Translations under genes and position numbers: made by a program
Notes under the pieces: generated by a model
What the model saw: the letters and a program-made list of their open reading frames with translations, nothing else
The model's database searches: none
Told to the model about the DNA's origin: nothing
Shown: positions 33,893 to 60,687 of the stretch, piece by piece
How the letters are laid out: each line of letters starts with the position of its first letter
How positions within the stretch are numbered: position 1 is the stretch's first letter
Source of the DNA: Bacilli bacterium
GTDB taxonomy: Bacteria > Bacillota_I > Bacilli_A > RFN20 > CAG-826
DNA: 64,000 bases
Direction: 5' to 3'
Assembly: GCA_017454295.1 (NCBI GenBank)
Contig: JAFTDF010000004.1
Span: 118,776 to 182,775, forward strand

Positions 33893-34522
33893 CTAGAAAA
33901 ACTCTTCTTCTAGACGTAGACAAAGATAGTGATAGATGGGTAAATGCAGTTCCTGAACCTTAAAGGTTTCGCTTTCGTCTACGGCGATGGTCATATCGGC
34001 GATTTGCTTGAGTTCGCCACCGCTTCTGCCGGTCAAACCTAAAACTTTTAAACCCAAGGCTTTGGCGCATTGGGCACCTAAAGAGACGTTGCGGGCATTC
34101 CCCGAAGTGGAGATGCCCAAAAACACATCGCCCGGCTTGCCAAGGACGTTGACTTGTTGGGCATATACGAGTTCCGCACCATGAGGGACGTCATTGGCGA
34201 AGGCGGTATTGAGCCCGGCATGATTATGCAAAGCGATGGCGGGAAAGCCTTCCTGAAGTTCATCGCATAATAGCTGGCCGTCTTTTTGTCGAAGCAAATT
34301 AGCCGCTTTCGATTGAGGCACGGTCCGTTTCTTTTTAAATCCCTTCATCAGTTCGCCGACGATATGATCGGCATCGGCGCAGCTGCCACCGTTACCGCAA
34401 ACCAAAAGCTTGCCGCCGTTTTGGTAGCACGCCTTCAAAACCGCATAAGCGGCTTCGATTTGGTCTTTGCTAGAAGCGAGGACCGGATAACGTTGTATGA
34501 GATCTTCGATGGTATATTGCAT
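33893..34522 (-). CDS. gmhA: SIS-domain phosphoheptose isomerase
   Basis: VCGNGGSCADADH motif and length match GmhA. Confidence 0.7.
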   Translation of the reverse strand: MQYTIEDLIQRYPVLASSKDQIEAAYAVLKACYQNGGKLLVCGNGGSCADADHIVGELMKGFKKKRTVPQSKAANLLRQKDGQLLCDELQEGFPAIALHNHAGLNTAFANDVPHGAELVYAQQVNVLGKPGDVFLGISTSGNARNVSLGAQCAKALGLKVLGLTGRSGGELKQIADMTIAVDESETFKVQELHLPIYHYLCLRLEEEFF

Positions 34523-35532: not shown

Positions 35533-35542
35533 GGTTGGAATA

Positions 35543-35571
35543 GAAAAAAGGCCGAAAGAAGACTTCCGACC
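35543..35571 (-). terminator. intrinsic terminator directly after gpmA (GGTCGGAAG-tctt-CTTTCGGCC then TTTTTTCTATT)
   Basis: Stem-loop and T-run seen on the minus strand. Confidence 0.55.
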
Positions 35572-35578
35572 ATAGGGA

Positions 35579-36289
35579 TTAGAGATAGTACTTTTGGATG
35601 ACGCTGAGGTCGGCTTCGTTGAGCTCGTAGACGAGCGGTTTGCCCGTCGGGATTTCCACGGAGATGATTTGATCGGGGGTCAGATGTTCAAGCATCATGA
35701 CGATGGCACGGAGGGAGTTGCCATGGGCGGCGATCAAGACTTTCTTCCCGGCTTTGATTTCGGGGGCGATCTTTTCGTCGAAATAGGGTTTCACACGAGC
35801 CGCGGTGTCGATGAGGCATTCGGTCAAAGGGCAATCCTCGATGGTCATTTCGCCTTTGGCGATGAGATCCTGATAGATCTTTTGGTTGCCCGGCCAGCGT
35901 TCGTCGTCCTTGGTTAAGGCAAGAGGCGGTACGTCGGCGCTACGACGCCAGATGTGGACTTGCTCGTCGCCCCACTTCTGAGCGGATTCAGCTTTGTTGA
36001 GGCCTTGAAGAGCGCCATAGTGACGTTCATTCAAACGCCAGGAATAGAATTTGGGGACGCTGTCCCATTCACCCATTTCTTTGAGGGCATATTCCATGGT
36101 TTTGTTGGCACGTTCAAGCGAAGAGGAGAAAGCGATATCGAACGAATACCCTTTCGCTTTGAGCAGTTGCCCGGCTTCGTGGGCTTCACGAACGCCTTGT
36201 TCGGAAAGGTGGACATCTGTCCAACCAGTGAAAAGATTCTTGAGGTTCCATTCGGATTGACCGTGACGGATAAGAACTAATTTGACCAT
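35579..36289 (-). CDS. gpmA: 2,3-bisphosphoglycerate-dependent phosphoglycerate mutase
   Basis: RHGQSEWN and FTGWTDVHLSEQG motifs; 236 aa. Confidence 0.9.
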   Translation of the reverse strand: MVKLVLIRHGQSEWNLKNLFTGWTDVHLSEQGVREAHEAGQLLKAKGYSFDIAFSSSLERANKTMEYALKEMGEWDSVPKFYSWRLNERHYGALQGLNKAESAQKWGDEQVHIWRRSADVPPLALTKDDERWPGNQKIYQDLIAKGEMTIEDCPLTECLIDTAARVKPYFDEKIAPEIKAGKKVLIAAHGNSLRAIVMMLEHLTPDQIISVEIPTGKPLVYELNEADLSVIQKYYL

Positions 36290-36353: not shown

Positions 36354-37673
36354 TTATTTCCCTAGGAAATCGATGATTTGCTCGGCCATGTAATCCAACA
36401 TCTCGTGGGTCATACCGGGATAGACGCCGATCCAGAAGGAATTGTTCATGATTTCATCGGTGACCTTCAAATCACCGACGACGCGGTAACCTTCCCCGCT
36501 TTCCCGCATCTGATCGAAGCAAGGATGGCGGAGCAAGTTCCCGGCAAAGAGGTTGCGGGTTTGGACACCATGGGATTCGAGATAACCGGTCATGTCGTTG
36601 CGGGTATAGGGCGCTTTCACATAGATGAGGAAGCCAAACCAGGAAGGATCGGCATTCTTCGTCGGCTCGGGAAGGATGATCTTATCGGCAACGCATTCGA
36701 GTTTTTCACGGAGATATTTCCAGTTCTCTTTACGCTTCTCGATGAAACCAGGGAGCTTTTCCAACTGGGCCACACCAACCGCGGCTTGCATCTCGGTAAT
36801 CTTGAGGTTGTAGCCGAATTCGGAATAGACGTATTTATGGTCAAAACCATAAGGCAAAGTGCCAAATTGACCGGTAAAGCGATGGCCGCAGAAATTATCT
36901 TTGCCCGAGGGGCAGATGCAATCGCGCCCCCAATCACGGAAGGATTTGCAGATACGGTTCAATAACGGATTGTTGGTATAGACGGCACCACCTTCGCCCA
37001 TCGTCATATGGTGGGCGGGATAGAAGGAGGAGGTTCCGATGTCGCCAATGGTGCCGGTATATTTCCATTCACCATCGATGAAATACTTGGTGCCTAAGGC
37101 ATCGCAGTTATCCTCAATCAACCAAAGGTTGTGCTTTTTGCAGAAATCGCGGACCGCCAAAAGGTCAAAGGCGTTGCCTAAGGTATGGGCGATCATGACC
37201 GCCTTGGTCTTGGGGCTAAGGGCCGCTTCCAATTGGTCGACGTCGATTTCATAACTGGGGAGTTTCACGTCGACGAAAACGGGAACGGCACCGTATTGGA
37301 TCATCGGGGTGACGGTGGTCGGGAAGCCGCAGGCAACGGTAATGACTTCGTCGCCGCGTTTGATTTGCCGTTCTTTTAAAGAAGGGGAAGTCAGCGTCAT
37401 AAACGCCAAAAGGTTAGCGCTAGACCCGGAAGTCGTCGCCAAGCAGAAGCGGGCACCGAGGAACTTCGCGAAATTCTTCTCGAACATCTCCACATAGCGG
37501 CCGGCGGTCAACCAAAAATCCAATGAGCTATCAACCAAATTCACCATTTCCTTCTCGTCGTAAACACGAGAGGCGTAGTGAATATAATCGCCTTTCACAT
37601 AAGGCTTTTTGTGGGCTTGTTGCTCTTGGAAATACTCCTTAACCAATACAAGGATTTGCTGACGTTTGTCCAT
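36354..37673 (-). CDS. rfbH: CDP-4-keto-6-deoxy-D-glucose 3-dehydrase (E1; RfbH/DdhC/AscC family, PMP and 2Fe-2S dependent)
   Basis: DegT fold with His in place of the PLP lysine (FYPAHHMTMGEGG) and a C-x-C-x7-C cluster motif (DCICPSGKDNFC); 439 aa. Confidence 0.8.
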   Translation of the reverse strand: MDKRQQILVLVKEYFQEQQAHKKPYVKGDYIHYASRVYDEKEMVNLVDSSLDFWLTAGRYVEMFEKNFAKFLGARFCLATTSGSSANLLAFMTLTSPSLKERQIKRGDEVITVACGFPTTVTPMIQYGAVPVFVDVKLPSYEIDVDQLEAALSPKTKAVMIAHTLGNAFDLLAVRDFCKKHNLWLIEDNCDALGTKYFIDGEWKYTGTIGDIGTSSFYPAHHMTMGEGGAVYTNNPLLNRICKSFRDWGRDCICPSGKDNFCGHRFTGQFGTLPYGFDHKYVYSEFGYNLKITEMQAAVGVAQLEKLPGFIEKRKENWKYLREKLECVADKIILPEPTKNADPSWFGFLIYVKAPYTRNDMTGYLESHGVQTRNLFAGNLLRHPCFDQMRESGEGYRVVGDLKVTDEIMNNSFWIGVYPGMTHEMLDYMAEQIIDFLGK

Positions 37674-37754
37674 AGGGTTCTCCGTAAAGTTTCTTTAAGA
37701 AAGCGACCCCATTTTATACTAATCGCCAAGGGAAAACCACCATGCGTTATGCGT

Positions 37755-37777
37755 AAACAAAAAGGCGGATAACCGCC
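37755..37777 (-). terminator. intrinsic terminator after rfbG (GGCGG-ttat-CCGCC then TTTTTGTTT on the minus strand)
   Basis: Seen directly. It separates rfbF-rfbG from rfbH, which has its own TATAAAAT plus GGAG start region. Confidence 0.5.
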
Positions 37778-37784
37778 TTTGGTA

Positions 37785-38852
37785 TTAATTTTGGAAGAAT
37801 TCCCGGATTTCCTTGTCGGTTTCTTCGAGTAGGGCTTTCCGGTCTCCGGAGAGATAGACTTTCGTCCAATCGGCGACGAGCTTAAGGGCTTCGTCGATAT
37901 GGGTCCTCGGCTTCCAGCCAAAGACCCGTTTAATCTTCCCTGCGTCAAGTTTGAGGAAGTTGGCTTCGTGAGGGCCATTTGGATCCCCCACTTCCCAAGT
38001 GGCCTCGGGGCCATAAATCGCATCGAATTTTTGGATGAGATCACCTGTGGTGACGCAATCGCAATCGTCTGGTCCGACATTGTAATAGCCTGCGTGCGAG
38101 AAATCCTCATATTGGGCTTGGGCGATGGTCAGATAAACAAGCAACGGTTCCAGAACGTGCTCATAGGGGCGGGTGGAATTGGGATTACGGACAAATAGAG
38201 GTTTTCCCGCTTCGATGGCGCGGACGGCATCCGGAATGATACGGTCTAAAGCGAAATCCCCACCGCCGATGACGTTGCCGGCGCGGCAAGTAGAAACCGG
38301 AAGTTTAATCGGGTCGAAGAATGACTTCTTGTAAGAATGAGTCACGAGTTCCGAACAAGATTTGGAATTGGAGTAGGGATCGTACCCATCCAAAGGCTCG
38401 TCTTCGGTGAAGGCATGACCAGGGATATCGTTATTCAAATAGACCTTATCGGTGGTGACGTTGACCACGGATTTAACAAAGTTGGAGGTGCGCACCGCTT
38501 CCATCACATTCGCAGTGCCGATGACATTGGTTTCGTAGGTATATAGGGGTTCTTGATAAGACAAACGCACCAAAGGTTGAGCCGCCAAATGGAGGATGAT
38601 TTCCGGCTTATATTCATCCACGACCGCCTTAAAATGGGGATAATCGCGGATATCGCCGATGATGGAAATCATCTGGTCTTTTAGGCCAAGCAAGTCGAAT
38701 AAAGCGGGTTTGGTCGGGGGTTCCAAAGAATACCCCACCACTTTGGCACCGGCCAAAATCAAGATTCTCGATAACCAAGAACCTTTAAAGCCGGTATGAC
38801 CGGTGATGAGGACGGTTTTTCCTTTGTAAAAGGATAAGCTGAAATTAGTCAT
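37785..38852 (-). CDS. rfbG: CDP-glucose 4,6-dehydratase
   Basis: TGHTGFKGSWL Rossmann motif and YxxxK region. Start taken at MTNFSLSF (ATGACTAA overlap with the rfbF stop). The track M1 start 21 nt upstream is possible. Confidence 0.8.
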   Translation of the reverse strand: MTNFSLSFYKGKTVLITGHTGFKGSWLSRILILAGAKVVGYSLEPPTKPALFDLLGLKDQMISIIGDIRDYPHFKAVVDEYKPEIILHLAAQPLVRLSYQEPLYTYETNVIGTANVMEAVRTSNFVKSVVNVTTDKVYLNNDIPGHAFTEDEPLDGYDPYSNSKSCSELVTHSYKKSFFDPIKLPVSTCRAGNVIGGGDFALDRIIPDAVRAIEAGKPLFVRNPNSTRPYEHVLEPLLVYLTIAQAQYEDFSHAGYYNVGPDDCDCVTTGDLIQKFDAIYGPEATWEVGDPNGPHEANFLKLDAGKIKRVFGWKPRTHIDEALKLVADWTKVYLSGDRKALLEETDKEIREFFQN

Positions 38853-39621
38853 CCCAGGTCTTCCACGGGGCATCGCCCTCTTCCCACAGCTGCTCTAAGT
38901 AATCCTTATCGCGCTTGGTATCCATGCACTGCCAGAATCCTTTGTGATGGTAGGCAGCAGCCTTCTTGTCGGCGACGAGTTTGCCAATGGGGCCTTTTTC
39001 GAAGACCGTTTTATCCCCGGCGATGTATTTGATGACTTCCGGTTCGCAAACCATGAAACCGCCGTTGATCAAGGAACCATCTTGAATGGACTTTTCGCGG
39101 AACGCTTCAAGGGTTCCGTCTTTTCCGACTTCGATAATACCTTTGGTTTGGGACAAAGCGATGGAGGTGATGGTAATGGCCTTGCCGGTTTTCTTATGGA
39201 AGGCGAGAAGCTTATTTAAATCCACATCAGAAACGGCATCACCATAAGTCAGCATAAACGGCTCATTGCCGATATATTCCGCTGCCCGCTTGATACGACC
39301 GCCGGTCATGGTATTGAGCCCGGTGTCGAGAACGGTGACACGCCAAGGCTCGGCATGCTTTGCATGGACGATGACTTCATTATTCACCATATCGAAGGTG
39401 ACGTCGGAATGATGAAGGAAATAATTATTGAAATATTCCTTAATGACATATTGCTTATAGCCACCAAGAATCACGAAGTCATTGAAACCGTATTCGGAAT
39501 AATGCTTCATGATGTGCCAAATGATCGGCATATTGCCGATTTCAATCATGGGTTTGGGTTTGAACTGGGATTCTTCGCTGATGCGGGTCCCGTAACCACC
39601 GGCAAGGATTAATACTTTCAC
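38845..39621 (-). CDS. rfbF: glucose-1-phosphate cytidylyltransferase
   Basis: ILAGGYGTRI motif and the cytidylyltransferase-specific insertion WRVTVLDTGLNTMTGGRIKR; 258 aa. Confidence 0.85.
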   Translation of the reverse strand: MKVLILAGGYGTRISEESQFKPKPMIEIGNMPIIWHIMKHYSEYGFNDFVILGGYKQYVIKEYFNNYFLHHSDVTFDMVNNEVIVHAKHAEPWRVTVLDTGLNTMTGGRIKRAAEYIGNEPFMLTYGDAVSDVDLNKLLAFHKKTGKAITITSIALSQTKGIIEVGKDGTLEAFREKSIQDGSLINGGFMVCEPEVIKYIAGDKTVFEKGPIGKLVADKKAAAYHHKGFWQCMDTKRDKDYLEQLWEEGDAPWKTWDD

Positions 39622-39740
39622 AAAGACACCTCTCGGATATTCGTGGACAAATTATATCAAATTGTCTCATTTAGATAAAAGCGAATCGACGCAAACCAAT
39701 CCCATTGGATTCGAATAATATTCGAAATGTAAAAGAGCTT

Positions 39741-41003
39741 CTATTCTTGGCTTTCCGGGTTCTCATTGGAAACGCGGCAGTTTTTGTTTTCCAAGACAAC
39801 AATCAAAACGAGACACAATGCGACTTCCACGCCTTCTGCAATCACCAAAGCATAAGACATCCCATCCATATAGAGCCCCTGGCACATCGGATAGGATATC
39901 GCCGCGCAGATGGCCAACCCCAGCGCAGCGGCAATCATCGTTTCCTTCCGCTTTCCCATGGCTCCCAAAATCTGCGTGACCACCGTCACCATCGCCGTGA
40001 AGGAGGTGGCGATGATGGCGCCTTTGAACACATAGGCATAGGGCATGATGATGTCACCGTAAACAAGTTTCAAAGCCCAGTCGCCGAGCCAAACGACGCC
40101 CAAGAACACCGCAGAGCAGAATGCAATCGCGACGAACACCACAAGCCCTGTGAATTTGAGAAAACCAGCCTTCTCTTTTTGCTCGTGGAGTTTGGCAAAA
40201 CGCGGCACCAGAGGCAGCATGACGGCGGACGCAACCGTCTGAATCAAAACGGCGATGTTCGCAATGGACGAGTAATAGCCAAGCTGTTCCGTGTCATAGA
40301 TTTTTTCAAAGAAAATACGGGGAAGCGAAGGCAATACGTTAGAAAGCAGCAAGAGAACGAAAAGCGGGAAGCAAGAAATCAAAACGGATTTGAGGGTTTT
40401 CCACGAATAAGCACGCCACTGAATGCGGAAACCAACCGCCTTTTTCGCCACGAATATATCCACCAAAGCCATGGCAATCCCGACCAAGGAAAGACCGATC
40501 AACGACCAGATCAACGATTTCGTCAAAACGGCAATCGCGGCGAAGATCCCCACGGAAAAAAGGCCTTTAATCGTCAACGTGATGCCACCCAAATATAGTT
40601 TGGAGTGCTTTTGCAAAACGCCTTGGTAGATATCGGAGACCAATTCGGTCCCTTTATAGACGTAATAAATCATGATGGCTGCGATGATCGACCAGGAGTA
40701 TTGCAAAGCAAGGCAATAGCCAAAGCAAATGAGAAAGCTGATTCCGGTGAGGATGAAACGAGAAATCACGTAATCGCTATCCGAATGTTCGTTGTTGACG
40801 TCGGCGGCATACCTCAATCGGAGATAATAGTTCCCAAACGACATCGCGATATTCGAAGCGACCAAGGCAAGGGTCAGCACACCCTGTGCCTCGACACTGA
40901 TGAATTTGGTGGTGAAAACCGTAATCAGCCAAAGCCCAAACAAATAGGCGAACTGCCCGATGAGGTTCCAAATCAACTCTTTACCTAAAGCACCCTTTTT
41001 CAT
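39741..41003 (-). CDS. polysaccharide flippase of the MOP/Wzx family
   Basis: 420 aa with 12 predicted TM helices, in glycan-locus context. Confidence 0.65.
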   Translation of the reverse strand: MKKGALGKELIWNLIGQFAYLFGLWLITVFTTKFISVEAQGVLTLALVASNIAMSFGNYYLRLRYAADVNNEHSDSDYVISRFILTGISFLICFGYCLALQYSWSIIAAIMIYYVYKGTELVSDIYQGVLQKHSKLYLGGITLTIKGLFSVGIFAAIAVLTKSLIWSLIGLSLVGIAMALVDIFVAKKAVGFRIQWRAYSWKTLKSVLISCFPLFVLLLLSNVLPSLPRIFFEKIYDTEQLGYYSSIANIAVLIQTVASAVMLPLVPRFAKLHEQKEKAGFLKFTGLVVFVAIAFCSAVFLGVVWLGDWALKLVYGDIIMPYAYVFKGAIIATSFTAMVTVVTQILGAMGKRKETMIAAALGLAICAAISYPMCQGLYMDGMSYALVIAEGVEVALCLVLIVVLENKNCRVSNENPESQE

Positions 41004-41021
41004 GGTTGTTTCTTTCTGGGA

Positions 41022-41933
41022 CTACTTCAAAGACGCGGCGACTTTCCGGATGCCTTCTTCGAAAGAAACGGTTGGGGCCCATCCGGTATCTTTCTTCAGT
41101 TCATCGACATGGGCACACATCTTCATGATTTGGTTGGGGGGATATTCAAGGGCGCCGAATTCGATCGGCAAATTAATGCCGAGCCATTGCGGAATCGGTT
41201 CGACGAAGCTACGAATCGTGCCGGTCACGCCACTGCCAAGTTCATAGGTCTTTCCATCAAGGCCCTTATCCGCGACGGCGGCGATAGCCCGCACCGCATC
41301 TTCGGTGTAGAGGAAATCCCAAATCTGCTCGCATTTAGTGAGTTTGGGAGACTCGCCTTTGAGCAAGGTGCTAACGATATATTGGGTCAACGATCCAGCA
41401 CCGGAAAAGGGACCATAGACCGAGAAAATACGAATCCAATTAAAGCGGATGCCGATCTGGCTGGCTTTGAGTTTTCCAAGCTGTCCCGCGGCGAGTTTGG
41501 CCATGCCGTATCCGGTTACTGGCATTAGCGGGCGATCCTCGGATTCGACGCCCTTGCCGTATTCAGCTTGGGATCCGGCGCCGACGAAGGCCTTGCAGCC
41601 CATACGTTTGGCCAAATCCAGGGCATCCATGACCCCTTTGATGTTTTGCACTTGAAGGGTGGTGTCGTCACGATTGGGGCCGAAGGTTCCGGCCCAGGAT
41701 AGATGAATGAAGGCATCGCAATCGGTGGGAATCTGCATCAGAGATGAATAATCCGTTAGGAGGCAATCGATGAAGGTAATCCGCTCGGGGTGGGAATAGG
41801 CTTTCGGGTTGGTGATTCCCGGCATATTCAGCAGCACACAATCGACGCCTTCCGAAGTGAACAGATTGGTTAAAGCCACGCCAATGGTTCCGGTGGCTCC
41901 CGAGATGACGACTTTTTTCAAATGATATGCCAT
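41022..41933 (-). CDS. NAD(P)-dependent extended-SDR epimerase/reductase (CDP-paratose/abequose-synthase-like or YerF-like)
   Basis: GATGTIG Rossmann motif and a YGMAK catalytic Y-x3-K; 303 aa. Confidence 0.7.
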   Translation of the reverse strand: MAYHLKKVVISGATGTIGVALTNLFTSEGVDCVLLNMPGITNPKAYSHPERITFIDCLLTDYSSLMQIPTDCDAFIHLSWAGTFGPNRDDTTLQVQNIKGVMDALDLAKRMGCKAFVGAGSQAEYGKGVESEDRPLMPVTGYGMAKLAAGQLGKLKASQIGIRFNWIRIFSVYGPFSGAGSLTQYIVSTLLKGESPKLTKCEQIWDFLYTEDAVRAIAAVADKGLDGKTYELGSGVTGTIRSFVEPIPQWLGINLPIEFGALEYPPNQIMKMCAHVDELKKDTGWAPTVSFEEGIRKVAASLK

Positions 41934-42109: not shown

Positions 42110-42880
42110 ATGCAAGTAGTCATTTTGGCAGGAGGGGAGGGCATCCACCTTCCGGGCAGCGGCATCACCACCGCCAAGGGTATGGTCAACGTTGGCAATC
42201 AGCCCATTTTGTGCCATATCATGGACCAATTCTCCGCTTATGGCCTCAACGATTTCGTCATTTGCGCCGGCAAACACCAAATGGAAATCAAGCAGTTTTT
42301 CCTCGATTACTATGTCCGAAATAACGATATCCTTGTCGATTTGGGAAGCAATACCGCCACCATTGAAACCAACCGGAAGAAACAATGGCGCGTACGCGTT
42401 GTCGATACTGGCGTCAACGTTGCCACCGGCGGACGCTTGAAGCGGGTGGCTTCCTATTTAAACCCGAAAGAGCCTTGCTTGGTTGCTTATGCTGATACCT
42501 TGGCCGATGTCGATATCAAATCTTTGATTGAACAGCATATTTCTAGCGGAAAAAAGGCAACCATAACCACTTATAACGCCTCCCAGAAATTCGGCGTCGT
42601 CGAAACCAAGCCCGATGGAACCGTCACTCAGTTCCGGAGCCGTAACGCCCAAAGCCTTTCGCTCATTAATATCGGGTTCATGGTTTTGGATCCTTCCGTG
42701 CTTGATTTGATCAACGGAGACGATATCGTCTTGGAAAAATACCCGTTGGAAGAGCTCGCGCGTCAAGGCCAGCTCGGCGCTTATGTCCATGAAGGTTTCT
42801 ACAGCAAACTTGACACATTAAACGACAAAGTCATGCTCGATAACCTCTTTGCAACCGGGCAAATTAAATTCGGTGCCTGA
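42110..42880 (+). CDS. divergent paralogue of glucose-1-phosphate cytidylyltransferase lacking the canonical G-x-G-T-R loop
   Basis: Shares the RfbF-specific insertion (WRVRVVDTGVNVATGGRLKR), but the N-terminus reads ILAGGEGIHLPGSGITTAKG. AAAGGAGA ribosome-binding site. Confidence 0.65.
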   Translation: MQVVILAGGEGIHLPGSGITTAKGMVNVGNQPILCHIMDQFSAYGLNDFVICAGKHQMEIKQFFLDYYVRNNDILVDLGSNTATIETNRKKQWRVRVVDTGVNVATGGRLKRVASYLNPKEPCLVAYADTLADVDIKSLIEQHISSGKKATITTYNASQKFGVVETKPDGTVTQFRSRNAQSLSLINIGFMVLDPSVLDLINGDDIVLEKYPLEELARQGQLGAYVHEGFYSKLDTLNDKVMLDNLFATGQIKFGA

Positions 42881-42882
42881 TT

Positions 42883-44649
42883 ATGACCAAAGGTTTCCTT
42901 TACGACGGACATTTGTTTTACGCGGATCTCTCGTTGGTTTCTTTGGAATCTCACTATCGCCTTTTCACCAAAGACAGTTACGAGGAAATCGTTGAACCGG
43001 AAGATATTTTCCACGCCAAGTCTTTTCGTTTAATCCTCGAGGACTATATCGAAAGTCTCATTGATCAAGACGCTGAACTATATGATTTCTTTGCCCGAGG
43101 GCTCTCAGACCCCATCCGTGGTTTGACGTCATTGACTTCCCTCTTCTCCAACGTAACCAGAACCAACGTCATCAAAGACTATCCCCAATATGAATCCGTT
43201 CTTTCCGACGGCGGCTTGAACTTCATGCGGTTCGTCGAAGGCTTTTTGCGTTTTTATCTATCTCGGGAACGGTTTGGATTCCTCAAAGCCGGACCGGGGA
43301 TGGATTTCGACCGCTTGAAATTGAAACTCCGCACGTTCCGGGCCACCTTGCTTCATCTCTTTCACAAAGTGGAGACCAACGTGCTAGAAAAACCGATTTC
43401 CGTCGAAAGCGAGCTCAATGTCGGCTTCTCCTGTGGACTCCTCGTCGACGATAGCCCCATTCGTTTCGAAGGCAACTATGCTTATCTCAACGATGTTCTC
43501 TTCGTGAAAGACGCCTATCTCGCCTTGCCTTATACGACTTCCACCAAAAAGAATAAACGCATTGGCGTCTATCAGCCCTCCCCCACTCCTTTGGCGAAGG
43601 AGCTGGATATCGATCCTTCCGAATTCCTATGCATCCCCATTTACTGTGGGTCGAGCCTCGTCTACTTTTATTTCAATGTCCATAACCTGAATAACGTCAT
43701 CGGCATTCTCAATCTTTTCACGAAGGTTCCTTATACCGAGCTGGAAGGAAAGAAGCCAGACATCATCGTCATCTTTGGTGGAAATAAAGGCGAATCCACT
43801 GGCACCTACTACTACGATGGGGATGGGGATTTCCTCGTCGGCTATGTTTCCGAAACCGAAGACGCCGATTATTTCGGCTACGTGAAAAAACTCATCCTCA
43901 CTTTGCACAACACGAGGATGATCAACCAAGGGTATCTGCCCATCCACGGCTCGATGATGGATATCATCATGAAGTCCGGCAAAGAAGTCAAAATCGTCAT
44001 CATGGGCGACTCTGGGGCTGGCAAATCCGAATCCATCGAAGCTTTCCGCAAGTTGGCAAAAGAATATCTAAAAGACATCAAAATCATCTTTGACGATATG
44101 GGCACCCTCTTCCTGACCAAGGACGGCGTCCGCGCTAGCGGAACCGAATCCGGCGCTTTTGTCCGTATCGACGACCTCGATATCGGATATGCGTTCTCCC
44201 ATATCAACGATTCCATTATTTATAATGCCGATCGGACCAATGCCCGCATCGTCTACCACGCCACCCCGTATGACGAAGTGGTCACCAAATGGCCCGTCGA
44301 TATCTTCCTTTATGCCAACAACTACGAAAAGAGCGAGGAAGGAATCCGCTTCCCCGAATCTTGGGAAGAAGTGGCCACCATTTGCGAAGAAGGCAAACGC
44401 ATGGCCAAAGGCACCACGGGAGAAGTCGGAATCGTCTCCTCTTATTTCGCCAACCCTTTCGGCCCCGTTCAAAACAAAGAAAAGACCCAAGAGTTGGTTA
44501 AGGAATACTTTGCCACAATGGCCAAGGACGGGACATCGTTAGGCATCATCTATACGCAACTCGGGTTGGAGAATATGAGCAAAATCGGCCCGGAGTTAGC
44601 CGCGAAAAAATTATTTGAATGGATCAATCAAAGCGAGGAAAAGCAATGA
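42883..44649 (+). CDS. 588-aa protein: novel N-terminal domain of about 330 aa fused to an HprK/P-like (PEPCK-fold) P-loop kinase domain
   Basis: The segment LPIHGSMMDIIMKSGKEVKIVIMGDSGAGKSESIEAFRKL...IIFDDMGTLF matches the HprK pattern IHG..v..G.gvLi.GdSGvGKSE..L...GH.LvaDD. Starts 2 nt after the rfbF-paralogue stop; the next gene start overlaps its stop (ATGA). Confidence 0.6.
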   Translation: MTKGFLYDGHLFYADLSLVSLESHYRLFTKDSYEEIVEPEDIFHAKSFRLILEDYIESLIDQDAELYDFFARGLSDPIRGLTSLTSLFSNVTRTNVIKDYPQYESVLSDGGLNFMRFVEGFLRFYLSRERFGFLKAGPGMDFDRLKLKLRTFRATLLHLFHKVETNVLEKPISVESELNVGFSCGLLVDDSPIRFEGNYAYLNDVLFVKDAYLALPYTTSTKKNKRIGVYQPSPTPLAKELDIDPSEFLCIPIYCGSSLVYFYFNVHNLNNVIGILNLFTKVPYTELEGKKPDIIVIFGGNKGESTGTYYYDGDGDFLVGYVSETEDADYFGYVKKLILTLHNTRMINQGYLPIHGSMMDIIMKSGKEVKIVIMGDSGAGKSESIEAFRKLAKEYLKDIKIIFDDMGTLFLTKDGVRASGTESGAFVRIDDLDIGYAFSHINDSIIYNADRTNARIVYHATPYDEVVTKWPVDIFLYANNYEKSEEGIRFPESWEEVATICEEGKRMAKGTTGEVGIVSSYFANPFGPVQNKEKTQELVKEYFATMAKDGTSLGIIYTQLGLENMSKIGPELAAKKLFEWINQSEEKQ

Positions 44650-46466
44650 AAGTCAAATTCTCGACCTATTTAGCAAAATGGTTGGTGGATCATGGCATCA
44701 CCACCAACTTCACCGTTCCTGGCGGCGGCGCTATGCATTTAAACAACTCCTTTGCGGCTGAGCCGGGTTTGAAGAACGTCTTCGTCCAGCATGAGCAAGC
44801 TGCTTCCATCGCCGCCGAAGGGTATTACCGCGAATGCAATCGTCTGCCTTTGGTTTGCGTGACCACCGGCCCGGGTGGGACCAACGCCATCACCGGCGTC
44901 CTTGGCGCATGGCTGGATTCTATTCCGATGTTAGTCATTTCCGGTCAGGTCAAATGGAGCACCACCGTCGCTTCCACCGGTTACCCTATGCGGATTTTCG
45001 GCGACCAAGAATACGATATCACGAAGCCCATGGCCCATATGACCAAATACGCCATGATGCTCACCGTTCCCGAAATGGCGCTTTACCATGTCGAAAAAGC
45101 CATCTATTTGGCCACCCATGGTCGCCCTGGACCAGTGTGGCTGGATATGCCTCACAACATCCAAGCGGCGATGATTGATCCCGACGAACTCATCCACTTC
45201 AATCCCGAAGAGCTCGCCAACACCAACCCCGGACCCGTTTCCGATCAAGTCATCGATTTACTCATCGAAAAGATCAAAGCCGCCAAGCGCCCCGTGCTTT
45301 ATAGCGGCATCGAAGTCCGCACCAGCGGTGATTACAAAGCCTTCCGTCAGCTTGTGGAACGCCTCAATATTCCCGTCGTCACCAGTTTTGATGGTGTCGA
45401 TATGTTAGAAGATTGCCATCCTTTGCACGCTGGCCGCGCTGGCGATGTCGCCACGCGCTATGGCAACTGGGCCGTCCAAAATAGCGACTTCCTGCTCGTG
45501 TTAGGTTCTCGTCTAGGCATCCGTCAGGTATCCTATGCCACCAAAACCTGGGCTCGAGAAGCCTTTGTGGCGATGGTCTATCCGGATTCTTTGGAGCTCA
45601 CCAAACCCAATGTCCATGTGGAGTTGCCGATCCGTGCCACCTATCAGGATTTCCTGGCCAAAATGCTCGCAAAAGTCCAGCAGCCGATGGAAAAACGCCA
45701 AGAATGGTTGGATATCATCGCCAAATGGAAAGAAGATTACCCCTTGGTCAGCGATCAGCAAAAAGCCCAAAAAGAACCGGCGAATATCTACGCCTTCTTT
45801 GAAGCGTTCTCCAAACTCTTGCCGGAAAATACCACCACCGTTGCATCAAACGGGTCTTGTGAAGCCGTCGGCGGAGCCGCCTACCAAATGAAAAAAGGCG
45901 GACGCTTCATCATCAACTCGGGTGCCGCTTCCATGGGCTATGGTTTGCCCGCGGCCATCGGCGCCGCGTTTGCTAACGGCAAAGAAGTCATCTGCCTCGA
46001 AGGCGATGGTTCCATCCAAATGAATTTGCAGGAACTCCAAACCATGGTGTTCCATCAGTTGCCGATCAAAATCGTCCTCATCAATAACGAAGGCTACCAT
46101 TCCATGCGGCAAACCCATGCCAATCTCTTTAAGGACTATCCCGCGAATGGTATCGGGCCGGAAAGCCAAGACCTGAGCTTCCCCAATATGGAAAAAATCG
46201 CTGGTGCCTATGGCATCCCCTACTTCAAAGTCACCAAAAACGAAGAAACCGAGTCCGTCAGCAAAGCCTTCCTTGCCCACAAGGGCTATGCCTTAATGGA
46301 AGTGTTCGTGGACAAAGACCAATTCTTCTTCCCCAAGCCTTCCGCGATGCGGCTCCCCGATGGAACGCTCATCTCGCCGCCGCTTGAAGACATGGCGCCC
46401 TTCCTCCCGCGGGAAGAACTCGAAAAAATCATGATCATCCCCCTCGTTGATAACCAAAAGAAATAA
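44646..46466 (+). CDS. thiamine-diphosphate-dependent acetolactate-synthase-like enzyme (YerE-like branched-sugar-forming candidate)
   Basis: 606 aa. N-terminal Pyr domain, central TPP_enzyme_M domain and a C-terminal ThDP-binding GDGS-x24-NN motif (LEGDGSIQMNLQELQT...LINNEGY). GAGGAAAAG ribosome-binding site. Confidence 0.75.
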   Translation: MKVKFSTYLAKWLVDHGITTNFTVPGGGAMHLNNSFAAEPGLKNVFVQHEQAASIAAEGYYRECNRLPLVCVTTGPGGTNAITGVLGAWLDSIPMLVISGQVKWSTTVASTGYPMRIFGDQEYDITKPMAHMTKYAMMLTVPEMALYHVEKAIYLATHGRPGPVWLDMPHNIQAAMIDPDELIHFNPEELANTNPGPVSDQVIDLLIEKIKAAKRPVLYSGIEVRTSGDYKAFRQLVERLNIPVVTSFDGVDMLEDCHPLHAGRAGDVATRYGNWAVQNSDFLLVLGSRLGIRQVSYATKTWAREAFVAMVYPDSLELTKPNVHVELPIRATYQDFLAKMLAKVQQPMEKRQEWLDIIAKWKEDYPLVSDQQKAQKEPANIYAFFEAFSKLLPENTTTVASNGSCEAVGGAAYQMKKGGRFIINSGAASMGYGLPAAIGAAFANGKEVICLEGDGSIQMNLQELQTMVFHQLPIKIVLINNEGYHSMRQTHANLFKDYPANGIGPESQDLSFPNMEKIAGAYGIPYFKVTKNEETESVSKAFLAHKGYALMEVFVDKDQFFFPKPSAMRLPDGTLISPPLEDMAPFLPREELEKIMIIPLVDNQKK

Positions 46467-46476
46467 GGAGAATCCC

Positions 46477-47484
46477 ATGAACATCACCGTACTTGATTGC
46501 ACCCTTCGCGACGGTTGCTATATCTGCAACTCCAACTTTGGCGCGGACACCATTCGCGGCATCATTCAAAAACTCGAACAAGCCGGCACCGAAATCATCG
46601 AAATCGGCTGGCTGAAAGACAAAGCCCATACCCCGGGGACCGCCTTCTATCATTTACCCGAAGACGCTAAGCAATACATGGGCAAGAAAGACCCCCACTT
46701 CTCTTATGTCGTGATGATCGACTGGGACCGTTATAACCTCGACAATTTACCCGTCAATGACGGCACCGCGATCGATGCGATCCGTGTGGTCTTCCCCCAC
46801 GGCAAACATCATGAAGGCATCGAAGTCGGCAAAGCCGTGAAAGCCAAAGGCTATGACCTTTATCTGCAAGCCGCCAACACGCTTGCGTATAGCAACGAAG
46901 ACCTCATCGATCTTTGTGCTTGCATCAACGAAGCCAAACCCATCGCCATTTCCATCGTCGATACCTTTGGAGCCATGTATCCCGAAGACCTGAAGCGTAT
47001 CGCCGAAGTGATGGATGCCCATTTGGATCCGGAAATCAAAATCGGATTCCATTCCCATAACAACCAGCAATTGTCTTTTGCCCTTTCCATCCAATTTGCG
47101 GAAATGTTCCAAAACTCCAAGCGGGACATCATGATCGATGCTTCCTTGACCGGCATGGGCCGCGGCGCGGGCAACACCACCACCGAATTGCTCATCTCTT
47201 ACCTCAACCGCAAGCAAGGCAAGAACTACGACATGAATGCGATTCTTGCCGCGATCGACCAATATATGGTCCCTCTGCAAAAACAATACGAATGGGGTTA
47301 TTCCATTCCTTACTTCATCTCCGGCACCCACTGCGCCCACGTCAATAACTTGGCTTACCTCCTTGAGAAGCATCAAGCCAGCAACGAAGACATCTGGGAC
47401 ACGTTTGAAAACGAGAAACCCGAAGATCGTCTCAAATACGATTACGACGTGCTCGAAGCCTGCTATCAATCTCGGAAAAAATAA
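46477..47484 (+). CDS. HMGL-like (DRE-TIM metallolyase) aldolase/synthase
   Basis: N-terminal LDCTLRDGCY, as in 4-hydroxy-2-oxovalerate aldolase / isopropylmalate-synthase-like enzymes. HSHNN metal site. AAGGAG ribosome-binding site. Confidence 0.7.
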   Translation: MNITVLDCTLRDGCYICNSNFGADTIRGIIQKLEQAGTEIIEIGWLKDKAHTPGTAFYHLPEDAKQYMGKKDPHFSYVVMIDWDRYNLDNLPVNDGTAIDAIRVVFPHGKHHEGIEVGKAVKAKGYDLYLQAANTLAYSNEDLIDLCACINEAKPIAISIVDTFGAMYPEDLKRIAEVMDAHLDPEIKIGFHSHNNQQLSFALSIQFAEMFQNSKRDIMIDASLTGMGRGAGNTTTELLISYLNRKQGKNYDMNAILAAIDQYMVPLQKQYEWGYSIPYFISGTHCAHVNNLAYLLEKHQASNEDIWDTFENEKPEDRLKYDYDVLEACYQSRKK

Positions 47485-48120
47485 ATGAAAGTCTTTTACG
47501 ATTTGGATGGGACGTTGCTCGACTCTAAGGGTGAAATCGTCTACACGATTGAAAAAGCTTTGGAGGAGAATGGCTTTTCTCTTGCCGATGCGATCCATCC
47601 GATTCGTATCGGTCCGCCCCTGAAGCAGATTCTTTTGAATTCCTATCCAGAAGGTTTCTTTTCGGAAGAGGACCTTGCCAAAATCAACCGTTCCATGCGG
47701 CGGATTTACGATAGTTCCGATTACCATATGACCCCGCCCTACCCAGGAGTGGTAGAACTTTTGGCTACCACCCCCTACGAGAGTTATGTGCTGACGAATA
47801 AGCCGCACTCCGCCACCGATCGGATAGTGGAAATCAAGGGGTGGTCCAAGTATTTCAAAGGGATCTTTGTTCCCGACTCCTCCAAAGGAGAGAGCAAGGA
47901 AACGATTCTGCGGGACCTCAAAAAACAATTCCCAAACGAGACGATCGTAATGGTTGGCGACACCATCAGTGACACGGGCTCCGCCCAAAAAGCTGGCGTG
48001 AAAGCCGTTGGCGTCCTTTGGGGCGAAGGAACGAAAGAAGAGCTGCTTCCTACGGAACCGGACTATTGTGTTTCGTCCTTAGACGACTTAAAACGAGCTC
48101 TGATCGAATTGGCTAGATAA
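47485..48120 (+). CDS. HAD-superfamily phosphatase (phosphoglycolate-phosphatase-like subfamily IA)
   Basis: YDLDGTLLDS motif I, T/S motif II and GDTISD motif III. The ATG abuts the aldolase stop. Confidence 0.75.
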   Translation: MKVFYDLDGTLLDSKGEIVYTIEKALEENGFSLADAIHPIRIGPPLKQILLNSYPEGFFSEEDLAKINRSMRRIYDSSDYHMTPPYPGVVELLATTPYESYVLTNKPHSATDRIVEIKGWSKYFKGIFVPDSSKGESKETILRDLKKQFPNETIVMVGDTISDTGSAQKAGVKAVGVLWGEGTKEELLPTEPDYCVSSLDDLKRALIELAR

Positions 48121-49965: not shown

Positions 49966-51166
49966 GGGGCGATGTCTCCCGACGACGATGAATCGCAAAC
50001 TCTATGGGGTTGACGATTAAAAGCAAAGCCTCCGCCACAAGCGAAGCAGCAAGGAACATCTCGCCATAATAGAACTGTTTCCCATGATGGAACCCGAATA
50101 AGAACAACATCAGAATCAACGAGGGGAGATAGCGTAAAGTGCGCCACTGATTACGGCTGCAAATCAAGAGCAGGAAAACGGGCAGGCAATAGGCGCAAGA
50201 ATAGGTGCCGGCGGTCCCCGGGAAGAACATCATTGCAAGAAAACACACCAAGGCCGATTCATAATCTTCCTTCGTGAAGAACAAAGCCAAGAGCACCACT
50301 ACCAAAAGCGCCAATTGCAAGATGGTGGCCCCAGTTCCTTGGATTGCGCCATTTCCAATGAAAAGCATCACAATATTTGAGAGGAACGGATTGGTGGTTT
50401 GTCCTTCCGAAAATAGAAATACCTGGCGAATTAGCAAATAGCAGCCTTCCGCTCCACCGTATACTACAAAAGGCACAAAGAACAGTAGCATGGAATAAAC
50501 CGCGGTTTTCACAAAACCGATGTAGTCTTTTTTCTTCAATAGAAAAAACGCAAAGACAACGGGATAGATTTTAATGGTAATTGAAAGGGCCAAGGCGAAA
50601 ATTGACAATTCGCGAACCCACGCCTTGTCGTGATCCCGGTAAGCAAAGAAAGCGACCAATAGCACGACGGAGGCAAGCAAAACGTTCCCCCGTTCAAAAG
50701 CGTAAAGCAAGGGATATGAGATCAGACAAAGGAGGAACACGAGCAAAGAAACGCCTTTTCTTTCGTTCCGGAGCAAGCGCCGAATGGAAAAATACAAAAC
50801 GATGGCGCAGGTTAGGAAGAATAACGTCAACTCAATCATGGCCGGGGCACATTGCCGCATCAAATAGCGCTGTTCAAAGGGGAGGCGAAGGATATTATCC
50901 GGCACGAATTTACTCATGAAATGGAAATACAGCGCCACCAACGGAGGGTAAATCGTGTGGTATTCCGTATAAGTGTTAAGTTCGGCATTATCGCGGACCG
51001 AATTCAAGTAGTCCATGAAGATATCCGCGCCACCATAGAAGAATACATCGGCATAAAAATTCTTATTGGTGAGCACGCCGGCGACAAAAACACTGACGAA
51101 AGAAGTGGCAAGAAGGATGGCCATCACCAGCAAGAACACCAAAGAAGGTTTCACATATTTCCTCAT
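49958..51166 (-). CDS. DUF2029/GT87-like polytopic membrane glycosyltransferase candidate (paralogue of 58177..59442)
   Basis: Shared motifs with the paralogue: FERGN, KIYPVVF, LLKKK. Confidence 0.55.
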   Translation of the reverse strand: MRKYVKPSLVFLLVMAILLATSFVSVFVAGVLTNKNFYADVFFYGGADIFMDYLNSVRDNAELNTYTEYHTIYPPLVALYFHFMSKFVPDNILRLPFEQRYLMRQCAPAMIELTLFFLTCAIVLYFSIRRLLRNERKGVSLLVFLLCLISYPLLYAFERGNVLLASVVLLVAFFAYRDHDKAWVRELSIFALALSITIKIYPVVFAFFLLKKKDYIGFVKTAVYSMLLFFVPFVVYGGAEGCYLLIRQVFLFSEGQTTNPFLSNIVMLFIGNGAIQGTGATILQLALLVVVLLALFFTKEDYESALVCFLAMMFFPGTAGTYSCAYCLPVFLLLICSRNQWRTLRYLPSLILMLFLFGFHHGKQFYYGEMFLAASLVAEALLLIVNPIEFAIHRRRETSPHA

Positions 51167-52950
51167 TGGACCCCTCCTTTAAAATTCATGCTGGTAAGGA
51201 AAAAATACAACGGACGGATGTCCTCGGTTTCCTCAACCTTTTTATCAAAAATGCATTGGATAAAATAATTCTCGTTTTTATTGAAGTTAGGCAAAGACAC
51301 CTCGTTTTGGTTTTCGGTGCAAGCAGCATGATATTTCTCCACTCCGTCGACATAAATCGTCATCGTACCGCCGAATTGTGCATCGGTAATGAACCAATGG
51401 AAGAACAGGGTCTCGCTATCTCCAGAGTTCAAAAGCACACGGAAATTCTCGCCACACCAATGGTCAAATGCCGGATCCTGGGGCGCTTGATACCCGCTTA
51501 ATCCGTAATAATAACCCGTTGTATAAAAATCATTGGTGATTGGGGCGGTAGAGAACATATCAAAACGGTTCTTACGCAGGGTGGTGACGTAATTAAAGGA
51601 CTCTTGTTGGTTCAAGCCGATGCAACTGTTTCCTTCGTCGTCAACCGCAATATCAGCCGGCTTGCCCGCCGTTTTTAAAGCATATAAGGCTTGAGGATCC
51701 GAGTTCCAAAAACCATAACGGGCCGTCCCATAGGAACCAAGGGCAGACACCGAGACGCAAATCGCTAAGAGAACCGCCCCGCAACCAACGAGCAAATTGG
51801 TCCGATCTTTTTTTCCTTCGCGGGCTGGCCGATGGGAGAAGAAAGTTTTGAGGTCGCAAGCACAAAGCGTGGCACCGGCAAGGAAAAACAACGTGAATGC
51901 CGCATCGTAATCGTTGGCCATAGGATGGGCATTGAATAAACCGTGCCACAAACACAGGGAAATCAGTCCGATTTTCGCCAAAAAGGGAACCAGCGAATCG
52001 GCAAGCCCACGACGGACATCCAAAACGCAACAAGCCACGAGGCAGGCAAACATAATGGAACCAAAGAGAATAATCCCAACGTGGATGAGTTTCGCCAAAA
52101 GCTGAAGAGCCGCGATATCCGTCTTCCAAATCGTTAGGCTCCCGAACGAATTCGGCGCCAAAGAAGAGAGGACGTTGAGTAGATAATCTTTGAAAGAGAA
52201 GTCAGAAAAGCTGGGTAAAAGCGAAGAACCGGATGCCCAATAAATCGATTGATGGGCAATAAAAAGGATTGCCGAAACGGCGAAAAGAATGAGCGCGTTG
52301 CGCCGTCTTAGGCCTTTTACCCACGAGTAGACCAAATAAGCAAAACCCATCAGTAAGGCGATGAATGTGAAGCTTGATGCAAGCAAGAAACAGGAAAGCA
52401 CCGAGAAAGCACAAGGGAGGATCCAGTATTTAAGACGCGGGTTCTCATTGGACAAGAAGCGTCGTAATGACCAGAAATAACCTAGCAAAACAAGCGCGGA
52501 GAGATAAAGATAAGGGCCGGAAGGGGAACTGTTTCCGTTGAGTGGGTTAAAGAAGACAAAGCCGAAGAAAAACAGGCCGACGACCCGCAAGTAGAAAGGT
52601 GTTTGTTCGCCGATTAATAGCCGACCGGCAAAAATCCAATATAAGATGGCCAATACCACATAGATCAAGGCAAGGCCGAAACGGAAAAAGCCTGAGGGTC
52701 CTAACCAGCGGATGAACGGTTCGAAAAAAAGCAATCCGTTCCCTTGGGAAGTCCATAGACCGTTATTCTCAGAAATCGCATGGAACCATCCCTGCGTTTC
52801 AGGGATTGCGAAGAAAAAATAAAGGAAAGTTCCGATTCCGAAAACCAGGGCGGAAAGAAGCCAGAGGAAGGGCTCTTTCTTAAGGTGGCTTAGGAAAGAC
52901 GTCCAACAAGTGACTAAACTGGGTTTTTGTGGCAAATCAGTCGTCGTCAT
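51163..52950 (-). CDS. polytopic membrane protein with a C-terminal extracytoplasmic domain (GT-C-like)
   Basis: 595 aa; GAGGAGGAGAGG ribosome-binding site. Similar architecture to 48142..49965. Confidence 0.55.
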   Translation of the reverse strand: MTTTDLPQKPSLVTCWTSFLSHLKKEPFLWLLSALVFGIGTFLYFFFAIPETQGWFHAISENNGLWTSQGNGLLFFEPFIRWLGPSGFFRFGLALIYVVLAILYWIFAGRLLIGEQTPFYLRVVGLFFFGFVFFNPLNGNSSPSGPYLYLSALVLLGYFWSLRRFLSNENPRLKYWILPCAFSVLSCFLLASSFTFIALLMGFAYLVYSWVKGLRRRNALILFAVSAILFIAHQSIYWASGSSLLPSFSDFSFKDYLLNVLSSLAPNSFGSLTIWKTDIAALQLLAKLIHVGIILFGSIMFACLVACCVLDVRRGLADSLVPFLAKIGLISLCLWHGLFNAHPMANDYDAAFTLFFLAGATLCACDLKTFFSHRPAREGKKDRTNLLVGCGAVLLAICVSVSALGSYGTARYGFWNSDPQALYALKTAGKPADIAVDDEGNSCIGLNQQESFNYVTTLRKNRFDMFSTAPITNDFYTTGYYYGLSGYQAPQDPAFDHWCGENFRVLLNSGDSETLFFHWFITDAQFGGTMTIYVDGVEKYHAACTENQNEVSLPNFNKNENYFIQCIFDKKVEETEDIRPLYFFLTSMNFKGGVQ

Positions 52951-60599: not shown

Positions 60600-60687
60600 A
60601 AGTGTAACGTTGAGATTATATCTCATTCCGAAGATAACAAGTGGAAATCTTCAATTTGGGGAGAATGCGCTTCATTGGTCTTTAAAG

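Follow-up and report, generated by a model that had tools for sequence, protein, structure and literature searches.

The stretch of DNA considered here (the window) comprises 64,000 nucleotides (nt) of contig JAFTDF010000004.1 from a Bacilli bacterium (assembly GCA_017454295.1), and the gene under study, located on its plus strand, codes for a protein predicted to be a very divergent relative of phosphoenolpyruvate carboxykinase (PEPCK). This PEPCK-like gene is immediately preceded by a paralogue of rfbF, the gene for glucose-1-phosphate cytidylyltransferase, and is followed by genes for a thiamine diphosphate (ThDP) enzyme, a pyruvate aldolase of the HMGL family and a phosphatase of the HAD family; a divergent segment on the minus strand (36354..41933) carries the canonical rfbF, rfbG and rfbH genes (Table 1). 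The paralogue gene, which has a strong Shine-Dalgarno sequence (AAAGGAG) upstream, has its stop codon 2 nt before the ATG of the PEPCK-like gene, and the TGA of the latter shares the tetranucleotide ATGA (44646-44649) with the ATG of the ThDP gene. The translational coupling of the PEPCK-like gene to a cytidylyltransferase paralogue on one side and a ThDP gene on the other, within a CDP-sugar operon, had been proposed in a first-pass annotation made from the sequence by eye, and is confirmed by these junctions. The start called mechanically for the open reading frame (ORF) of the ThDP gene is at 44619; the alternative ATG at 44646, with GAGGA upstream, is probably the true one, and gives a product of 606 amino acids (aa), compared with 605 aa in the orthologues.

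Fold and active site of the PEPCK-like protein

The first-pass annotation had described the C-terminal part of the protein as an HPr kinase/phosphorylase (HprK/P)-type domain fused to an N-terminal domain of 330 aa of no recognizable kind. The features on which this was based, namely the P-loop GDSGAGKSE, the preceding IHG strand and the following hydrophobic-DD motif, are indeed present (aa 375-383 and 399-405), and the protein does belong among the P-loop enzymes of the PEPCK/HprK superfamily; nevertheless, its fold and catalytic motifs are those of a PEPCK and not of an HPr kinase. The AlphaFold2 model, built from 36 homologues (pLDDT 89.4, pTM 0.90), has the two-domain PEPCK fold, and the top 50 Foldseek matches are all PEPCKs, with those of the ATP type first (E 2e-15, probability 1.00), in alignments of 360-455 columns at 14-18% identity. 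An HprK/P as best structural match over the domain was thus discarded. In the same line, hhalign profile-to-sequence comparison with Escherichia coli PckA gave an E value of 1.1e-5, and of 7e-6 under permissive settings, aligning residues 116-588 of the protein with 2-469 of PckA. Sequence models of other families were not matched above threshold: Hpr_kinase_C gave no Pfam match at E<=1, the HprK model TIGR00679 (NCBIfam) scored 11.6 bits (E 0.12; cut-off 240) and DUF4914 (Pfam) 12.6 bits (E 0.035; cut-off 25.7). Searches of the PDB sequences with phmmer and with a profile yielded nothing meaningful, the matches of the C-terminal helix to PPR repeats being spurious. On the predicted structure and these alignments, the protein is an enzyme of the PEPCK fold, complete and very divergent, to which a helical region is added at the N-terminus. 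The supposed fusion is in fact the architecture of one conserved family, and most of the supposedly unknown domain (aa ~171-326) resembles the N-terminal domain of PEPCK in the predicted fold, only aa ~1-170 being without a counterpart.

The active site can be followed by comparison with PckA, the ATP-dependent enzyme of E. coli (PF01293; PDB 1aq2/2pxz), conservation being given here for 118 aligned family members. In the hhalign alignment, Y330, G332, K335, K336 and H355 correspond to Y207, G209, K212, K213 and H232 of PckA, with identical spacing (Y-x-G-x-x-K-K...H), and N343 to the Asn located eight residues past K212 (YGGEMKKGMFSMMN); all six are invariant save K336, kept in 117 of the 118, and PDB holds mutant entries for these PckA motif residues. 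The P-loop, preceded by LPIHGS...VKIVIMG and followed by IKIIFDD, is at the same position in both proteins, S377 and K381 (118/118 each) being equivalent to PckA S250 and K254. The aspartates D404 and D405 are placed by hhalign within the PckA stretch GDDEHGWDDD and are proposed, in an inferred register, as the counterparts of D268/D269. Another example is the substrate arginine of the N-x-R motif, where both N453 and R455 are kept in 118/118. Finally, permissive sequence alignment matches a lid-like, G/T-rich segment to the omega-loop of the PckA lid (AKGTTGEVG...FANPFG versus AKLAGTERG...FSACFG), with R506, K509, T511, T512, E514, N524 and G527 invariant, and a C-terminal nucleotide strand is shared as well. 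On the other hand, the protein differs from PckA in its low identity, below all hidden Markov model cut-offs, in its extra N-terminus of ~170 aa, in the sequence of its P-loop (GDSGAGKSE versus GLSGTGKTT) and in its location within a glycan cluster. As the P-loop and the Mn2+/substrate site are retained, together with the DD and N-x-R motifs and a lid-like segment, PEPCK-type chemistry is inferred, and the predicted reaction would be the nucleotide- and metal-dependent interconversion of oxaloacetate and phosphoenolpyruvate (PEP) plus CO2, or an equivalent reaction of a very similar alpha-keto acid.

The resemblance to HprK/P deserves separate consideration, because a protein serine kinase/phosphorylase of this type could regulate glycan synthesis, as had also been suggested at first. 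Both groups belong to the same superfamily, and the Walker-A motif GxSGxGKSE of HprK/P, followed by a hydrophobic strand and DD, is nearly identical to that of the present protein. HprK/P, however, has neither the N-domain of PEPCK nor its K-K/H Mn2+ site, N-x-R motif and lid, whereas the PEPCK-specific residues for small-molecule and Mn2+ binding and those of the lid-like segment are invariant in the family apart from the single exception at K336; moreover, there is neither a significant match to the HprK models nor any gene for HPr or the phosphotransferase system among the annotated genes nearby, in the window and at related loci alike. Regulation by an HprK/P-like enzyme is accordingly regarded as highly improbable and a protein-kinase role as effectively excluded. 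A small-molecule substrate, i.e., an acid, is far more likely than a protein, and to this extent the small-molecule kinase of the first-pass annotation holds.

Table 1. Features of the PEPCK-like gene and of the genes around it (positions in the window).
Feature	Position	Strand	Remark
rfbH (E1 3-dehydrase)	36354-37673	-	NF011936, 708 bits, above cut-off
rfbG, CDP-glucose 4,6-dehydratase	37785-38873	-	TIGR02622, 396 bits, above cut-off
rfbF	38845-39621	-	TIGR02623, 359 bits, above cut-off
Unmatched ORF, 419 aa	39741-41003	-	No Pfam/NCBIfam match
Short-chain dehydrogenase/reductase (SDR), reductase/epimerase	41022-41933	-	Pfam Epimerase
RfbF paralogue, 256 aa, remodelled active site	42110..42880	+	Directly 5' of PEPCK-like gene
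PEPCK-like gene	42883..44649	+	ORF, 588 aa
Mostly helical N-terminal region, family-specific, aa 1-170	42883..43392	+	No PEPCK counterpart; no Pfam match
Beta-rich region, PEPCK N-terminal domain, aa 171-326	43393..43860	+	Includes invariant R226 on flexible loop
PEPCK-specific motif Y330-F-G-Y-V-K335-K336 ... N343 ... H355-G-S	43870..43953	+	hhalign; Mn2+/substrate site
P-loop GDSGAGKSE (kinase-1a), aa 375-383	44005..44031	+	Equivalent of PckA G248-LSGTGKTT
D404-D405 after beta-strand IKIIF (kinase-2/Walker-B-like)	44092..44097	+	Invariant
N453-A-R455, equivalent of PckA N331-T-R333 (oxaloacetate/PEP-binding Arg)	44239..44247	+	hhalign
Lid-like segment, aa 506-527, RMAKGTTGEVGIVSSYFANPFG	44398..44463	+	Aligned to PckA active-site lid region
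ThDP enzyme, three-domain, acetolactate synthase (ALS)-like (ErwE/YerE-type candidate)	44646..46466	+	Pfam TPP_enzyme_N/M/C
HMGL-like / DmpG-BphI-like class II pyruvate aldolase (ErwI-type candidate)	46474..47484	+	DxTLRDG, HSH motifs
HAD-IA phosphatase, phosphoglycolate-phosphatase-like	47485..48120	+	Co-conserved in module

The glycan clade and its remodelled RfbF

The glycan-cluster context is restricted to a clade of relatives with at least 54% identity to the protein of the window (hereafter, the glycan clade). Across it, at 54-100% identity, a module of five genes is found, coding for the RfbF paralogue, the PEPCK-like protein, the ThDP enzyme, the aldolase (HMGL) and the HAD phosphatase, in four gene orders. 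In the first one, the five genes follow each other as just listed; in the second, the pair formed by the RfbF paralogue and the PEPCK-like gene is followed by HMGL, HAD and ThDP; in the third, the pair is convergent with ThDP-HMGL-HAD on the opposite strand; and in the fourth it is convergent with HAD-ThDP, possibly preceded by HMGL. The paralogue is directly upstream of the PEPCK-like gene in the seven clade cases, with 2-nt gaps or overlaps, and the ThDP, aldolase and HAD genes abut the pair in all four arrangements. Adjacency to an rfbF-like gene and a ThDP gene, the point on which the first-pass annotation had proposed a neighbourhood survey, is thus constant within the clade, but neighbours of the NTP-transferase, ThDP, HMGL or HAD types were found in none of 80 reference-genome loci whose family members are 35-49% identical. 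A metagenome scan for closer relatives returned only members at 36-47% identity. As for irregular cases, in one metagenomic contig (L105, 9341-11506) the RfbF paralogue is split into pieces of 136 and 67 aa and only 501 aa are left of the PEPCK-like protein, due either to decay of the module or to sequencing error; in another (L090, 15278-20150), three AAA_14/DUF4143 ATPase genes lie between the ThDP gene and GT2/rfbG in an otherwise syntenic cluster.

When the eight glycan-clade sequences were compared with 110 others, just two positions of the catalytic domain set the clade apart: I429, where the others have L, and W470, where they have Y. Both changes are conservative, and all other differences lie at aa 7-99, within the helical region. 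Neofunctionalisation of the glycan-clade copy was rejected for want of active-site differences. Since the catalytic domain is unchanged, the recruited copy most likely shares its reaction with the relatives that stand alone or are linked to aminotransferases, and the feature that has changed is probably, to judge from these residues, a partner-binding surface.

The obvious partner is the RfbF paralogue, which matches TIGR02623 over its full length, at 248.8 bits (cut-off 300.25), and is 41% identical to the canonical RfbF of the window. Among 121 homologues compared (114 canonical proteins and seven paralogues), all the canonical ones keep GGxG[TS]R, PKPM, xEK and FW..MDT.RD, and mostly also INGGF. 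In the seven paralogues, by contrast, GGxG[TS]R is replaced by GGxG[IV]H, the Glu of EK is gone and FW..MDT.RD is altered, with loss of its Trp and Arg, changes seen in 0/114 canonical sequences; the Lys of PKxM, TGGR and the Asp residues are kept. The seven occur only on contigs with a glycan-clade PEPCK-like gene, with an identity gap between 54% and 47%. The Thr-Arg of GGxG[TS]R is essential for NTP binding, and the loss of these motifs indicates that the paralogue is either re-tooled or non-catalytic, and not an ordinary sugar-1-phosphate cytidylyltransferase. For this reason, and because the catalytic domain of the PEPCK-like protein is indistinguishable from that of its non-glycan relatives, the notion of a kinase that feeds a cytidylyltransferase is weakened. 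Should the recruitment proposed below hold, a paralogue devoid of both Thr-Arg and Glu-Lys would be a clean case of a re-tooled enzyme or partner subunit.

Alternatively, in a refinement of the small-molecule kinase proposed at first, the two proteins might form an activation pair, in which the PEPCK-like enzyme would make a phosphate ester, likeliest PEP from oxaloacetate, and the RfbF paralogue would join it to CTP, the resulting CDP-linked non-sugar unit (e.g., CDP-enolpyruvate) being then passed on to the glycan as a substituent of the phospho-enolpyruvyl, phospholactyl or phosphoglycerate type. This would account for a paralogue that is directly upstream in 7/7 clade members and confined to their contigs, and the loss of the sugar-contacting Glu and of the Trp, with retention of the Lys, TGGR and Asp residues, fits a non-sugar phosphate substrate. 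A conceptual analogy is provided by FbiD/CofC, a nucleotidyltransferase-fold enzyme that acts on PEP to yield enolpyruvyl-diphospho-guanosine in F420 biosynthesis, although the RfbF paralogue derives from a glucose-1-phosphate cytidylyltransferase, and no CofD/FbiA-like transferase, or any other transferase for such a unit, was identified. In addition, the paralogue lacks a Thr-Arg that is universal in the 114 canonical homologues, CDP-enolpyruvate is to our knowledge not a known metabolite, and the pair stays against the ThDP/aldolase/HAD block despite rearrangements, which suggests one integrated pathway. An activation pair is considered unlikely, although this possibility and the next one both retain appreciable weight. 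A heteromer has also been envisaged, with the RfbF paralogue as a non-catalytic CDP-sugar-binding subunit that either regulates its partner according to the level of CDP-sugar or presents the CDP-4-keto sugar to it, so that PEPCK-like chemistry would act on, or be gated by, the CDP-sugar pathway. Loss of the catalytic motifs with retention of the fold signature agrees with such a role, as do the translational coupling of both genes and the accumulation of clade-specific residues in the helical N-terminal region, where a partner could plausibly dock; the His found in place of Arg, however, could still support catalysis by the paralogue, and a purely non-catalytic subunit is considered less likely still. 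The SIS and GHMP-kinase genes located upstream were examined as partners of the paralogue in an NDP-heptose route, and were discarded since they are not conserved in other glycan-clade loci.

The wider family and its gene neighbourhoods

The ORF is not a chance one, because more than 1,800 homologues, most of ~575 aa, match it over 92-100% of the length and the motif residues are invariant. A profile search of 1.84 billion representatives recovered 754 clusters at 50% identity (210 at E<=1e-30) and recruited no canonical PEPCK, so that the family appears compact and distinct; one member nearly attains the gathering score of PF01293, with 25.2 bits (cut-off 26.5). Many members are unnamed or "hypothetical", and some are called "phosphoenolpyruvate carboxykinase" in NCBI or UniRef. 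They are found in Clostridium, Fusobacterium, Cetobacterium, Anaerococcus, Tissierellia, Dysgonomonas, Porphyromonas, Prevotella and Mycoplasmatota, and a homologue from a "Bacilli bacterium" metagenome-assembled genome is 98% identical to the protein of the window. The family is uncharacterised and is not covered by Pfam; literature searches gave nothing on DUF4914, and the search on the PEPCK of C. tyrobutyricum was uninformative.

In the wider family, the gene mostly stands alone, and the only recurrent neighbours beyond genus-level synteny are aminotransferases, AzlD-like proteins and an Lrp/AsnC regulator. For example, in a clade at 46-53% identity a class-I aminotransferase of the AspC/TyrB type lies 4 nt upstream of the family gene, and two further aminotransferase types are same-strand operon partners in other lineages. 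In one protein of 2,084 aa (P0495), an Aminotran_1_2 domain precedes the PEPCK-like region within the same chain. These couplings and the fusion point to an alpha-keto acid originating from transamination, oxaloacetate being the obvious candidate, and are consistent with a route aspartate <-> oxaloacetate <-> PEP. In P0495 and two other large proteins (P0500 and P0506; 2,084-2,199 aa in all), the PEPCK-like region is located at about residues 1180-1730, and the P0495 fusion can be seen as the Rosetta-stone counterpart of the aminotransferase operons. Another fusion (P0446, 646 aa) joins a fragment of the PEPCK-like catalytic domain to a domain of SAICAR synthetase, an aspartate-using enzyme, and could be either real or an assembly or gene-call artefact. 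In some 25 loci of Clostridium (L012-L073), the Lrp/AsnC-type regulator gene lies ~0.4 kb past the family gene in divergent orientation, which fits amino-acid-responsive control. At the edge of the glycan locus of the window there is also a class-I/II aminotransferase gene (59445-60626, minus strand), whose product is ~30% identical to the class-I type found downstream of Peptoniphilaceae/Tissierellia family members; it was rejected as the AspC/TyrB-type partner of the sister clade, being of the other type.

A broader possibility, put forward tentatively and with considerable doubt, is that the ~575-aa family constitutes a fourth sequence class of PEPCK, besides the ATP-, GTP- and pyrophosphate-dependent ones, that supplies the hitherto unassigned link between oxaloacetate and PEP in many Clostridia, Fusobacteria, Tissierellia and Mollicutes-like Bacilli. 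The glycan-clade protein would form, with a re-tooled RfbF, a two-protein enzyme that either delivers an enolpyruvate-type unit in CDP-activated form or feeds oxaloacetate to an aldol reaction with decarboxylation. In that case, carboxykinase chemistry of the central metabolism would have been wired into branched-sugar biosynthesis. If the assignment holds, ~750 clusters at 50% identity, so far invisible to Pfam, would come to be known as complete PEPCK-fold enzymes. The family may turn out to be what really connects oxaloacetate and PEP in many anaerobes, and the metabolic reconstructions of gut and rumen Firmicutes and of reduced-genome Bacilli would then change.

Proposed place of the pair in branched-sugar synthesis

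By their family matches, the rfbF, rfbG and rfbH genes of the minus strand would supply CDP-4-keto-3,6-dideoxyglucose as acceptor; among the ORFs annotated in the window, none codes for a [2Fe-2S] flavin reductase of the E3/AscD type, which leaves the electron donor for C3 deoxygenation unaccounted for. In the plus-strand operon, the ThDP enzyme falls below every acetolactate-synthase equivalog cut-off, and the aldolase, with DxTLRDG and HxH intact, is closest to 4-hydroxy-2-oxovalerate aldolase and has more than 3,600 matches, its close homologues being ~60% identical. Genes of the GT2, GT87, PMT_2-like and Acyl_transf_3 types come after the operon. In the synthesis of acyl-branched sugars, a pyruvate aldolase makes a gamma-hydroxy-alpha-keto acid, a ThDP enzyme of the ErwE/MMAR_2332/MyGE type joins it to CDP-4-keto-3,6-dideoxyglucose, and a reductase completes the side chain, a scheme that has been experimentally supported for erwiniose, caryophyllose and gastriose (PMC9306805). 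Like the clusters for yersiniose (YerE/YerF), erwiniose (ErwE/F/I/J), caryophyllose (MMAR_2331/2332) and gastriose (MyGE/MygI/MygF), the window brings together in one locus rfbF/rfbG/rfbH and the genes for a pyruvate aldolase, for a ThDP carboligase resembling ALS and for an NAD(P)H reductase, here the SDR (PMC9306805). Judged by family resemblance to ErwE and ErwI, it matches an erwiniose/yersiniose-type cluster for an acyl-branched CDP-3,6-dideoxyhexose. Unlike it, the clusters described all lack a PEPCK-like enzyme, a HAD phosphatase and a second RfbF of the remodelled kind; and the window has no ErwJ-type acetaldehyde dehydrogenase, which implies that the aldehyde partner of the aldolase differs. 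A literature search found no PEPCK-like protein associated with a cytidylyltransferase and no PEPCK in branched-sugar clusters, and the presence of ErwE/ErwI-type genes alongside a remodelled RfbF and a divergent enzyme of the PEPCK fold is a new combination.

The explanation that is preferred for this combination, and to which about even chances are given, is that a divergent relative of PEPCK has been recruited, together with the RfbF paralogue, into a branched CDP-sugar cluster as a precursor-supply module. According to it, one copy of the family would have been taken over, with its catalytic domain unchanged, in an uncultured lineage of Bacilli. Its most likely role would be the formation of oxaloacetate, an activated and irreversibly decarboxylating donor of pyruvate enolate for the BphI-like aldolase, although it might instead balance PEP and pyruvate for this enzyme. 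The aldolase would then build a gamma-hydroxy-alpha-keto acid, the ErwE-like ThDP enzyme would attach it to C4 of CDP-4-keto-3,6-dideoxyglucose, and the HAD phosphatase would remove the phosphate brought in by a phosphorylated aldehyde; the RfbF paralogue would probably be a physical or functional partner that docks on the clade-specific N-terminal helical region. There are precedents for the donor, as BphI possesses oxaloacetate decarboxylase activity and the enolate donor of RhiG is oxaloacetate.

Several observations weigh against recruitment for precursor supply. At the level of the protein, both PEPCK models score below their cut-offs, with 13.7 bits for PEPCK_ATP (PF01293; E 0.026, cut-off 26.5) and 23.9 bits for NF006821 of NCBIfam (E 1.4e-5, cut-off 369), and the P-loop, GxSGxGKSE ending in KSE, has an HprK flavour. 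An equivalent of Arg65 of PckA, which binds substrate and CO2, was not located, permissive alignment leading to a non-conserved position; the invariant R226, on a flexible loop of low pLDDT, is no more than a candidate for its role. At the level of the pathway, the supply of oxaloacetate to the aldolase leaves the constant coupling with an RfbF paralogue unexplained, and an enzyme dedicated merely to PEP would not be expected in a glycolytic organism. Finally, loci of Lachnospiraceae/Ruminococcus that hold close homologues of the aldolase (L107, 3520-11617; L109, 5073-12532) share RfbF, RfbG, RfbH, the ThDP enzyme, SDR, GT2, PMT_2, GT87 and acyltransferases and are devoid of the pair, in whose place a DHQ-synthase-like protein is encoded together with an FGGY kinase and a short-chain dehydrogenase. 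This marks the pair as accessory, and what it does may have nothing to do with the aldolase. The core machinery for branched sugars thus accepts alternative accessory modules, which presumably provide different side-chain precursors. If recruitment for precursor supply is correct, the scheme of ThDP enzyme, aldolase and reductase gains a swappable accessory module, which suggests that uncultured gut Bacilli use unfamiliar precursors for the side chain and carry new sugars on their cell surface.

Some minor features of these loci can be added. The aldolase of L107 and L109 has a C-terminal extension of ~200 aa; the idea that aldolase homologues of ~538 aa are aldolase-HAD fusions was rejected, since the extension matches no protein of the module and no Pfam family. 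In the window, genes for a GmhA-like protein with a SIS domain, an HddA-like GHMP kinase and a bona fide phosphoglycerate mutase of the dPGM type (33893-36289, minus strand) belong to the same string as rfbH, rfbG and rfbF and are not conserved in other glycan-clade loci; they could represent an NDP-heptose branch or a link of the locus to 2-/3-phosphoglycerate metabolism. Besides the unmatched 419-aa ORF of Table 1, three others within the glycan locus, at 51163-52950, 55140-56084 and 57255-58247 (595, 314 and 330 aa, respectively) have no Pfam or NCBIfam match, and all four have counterparts of similar size in related loci, e.g., L082 and L103.

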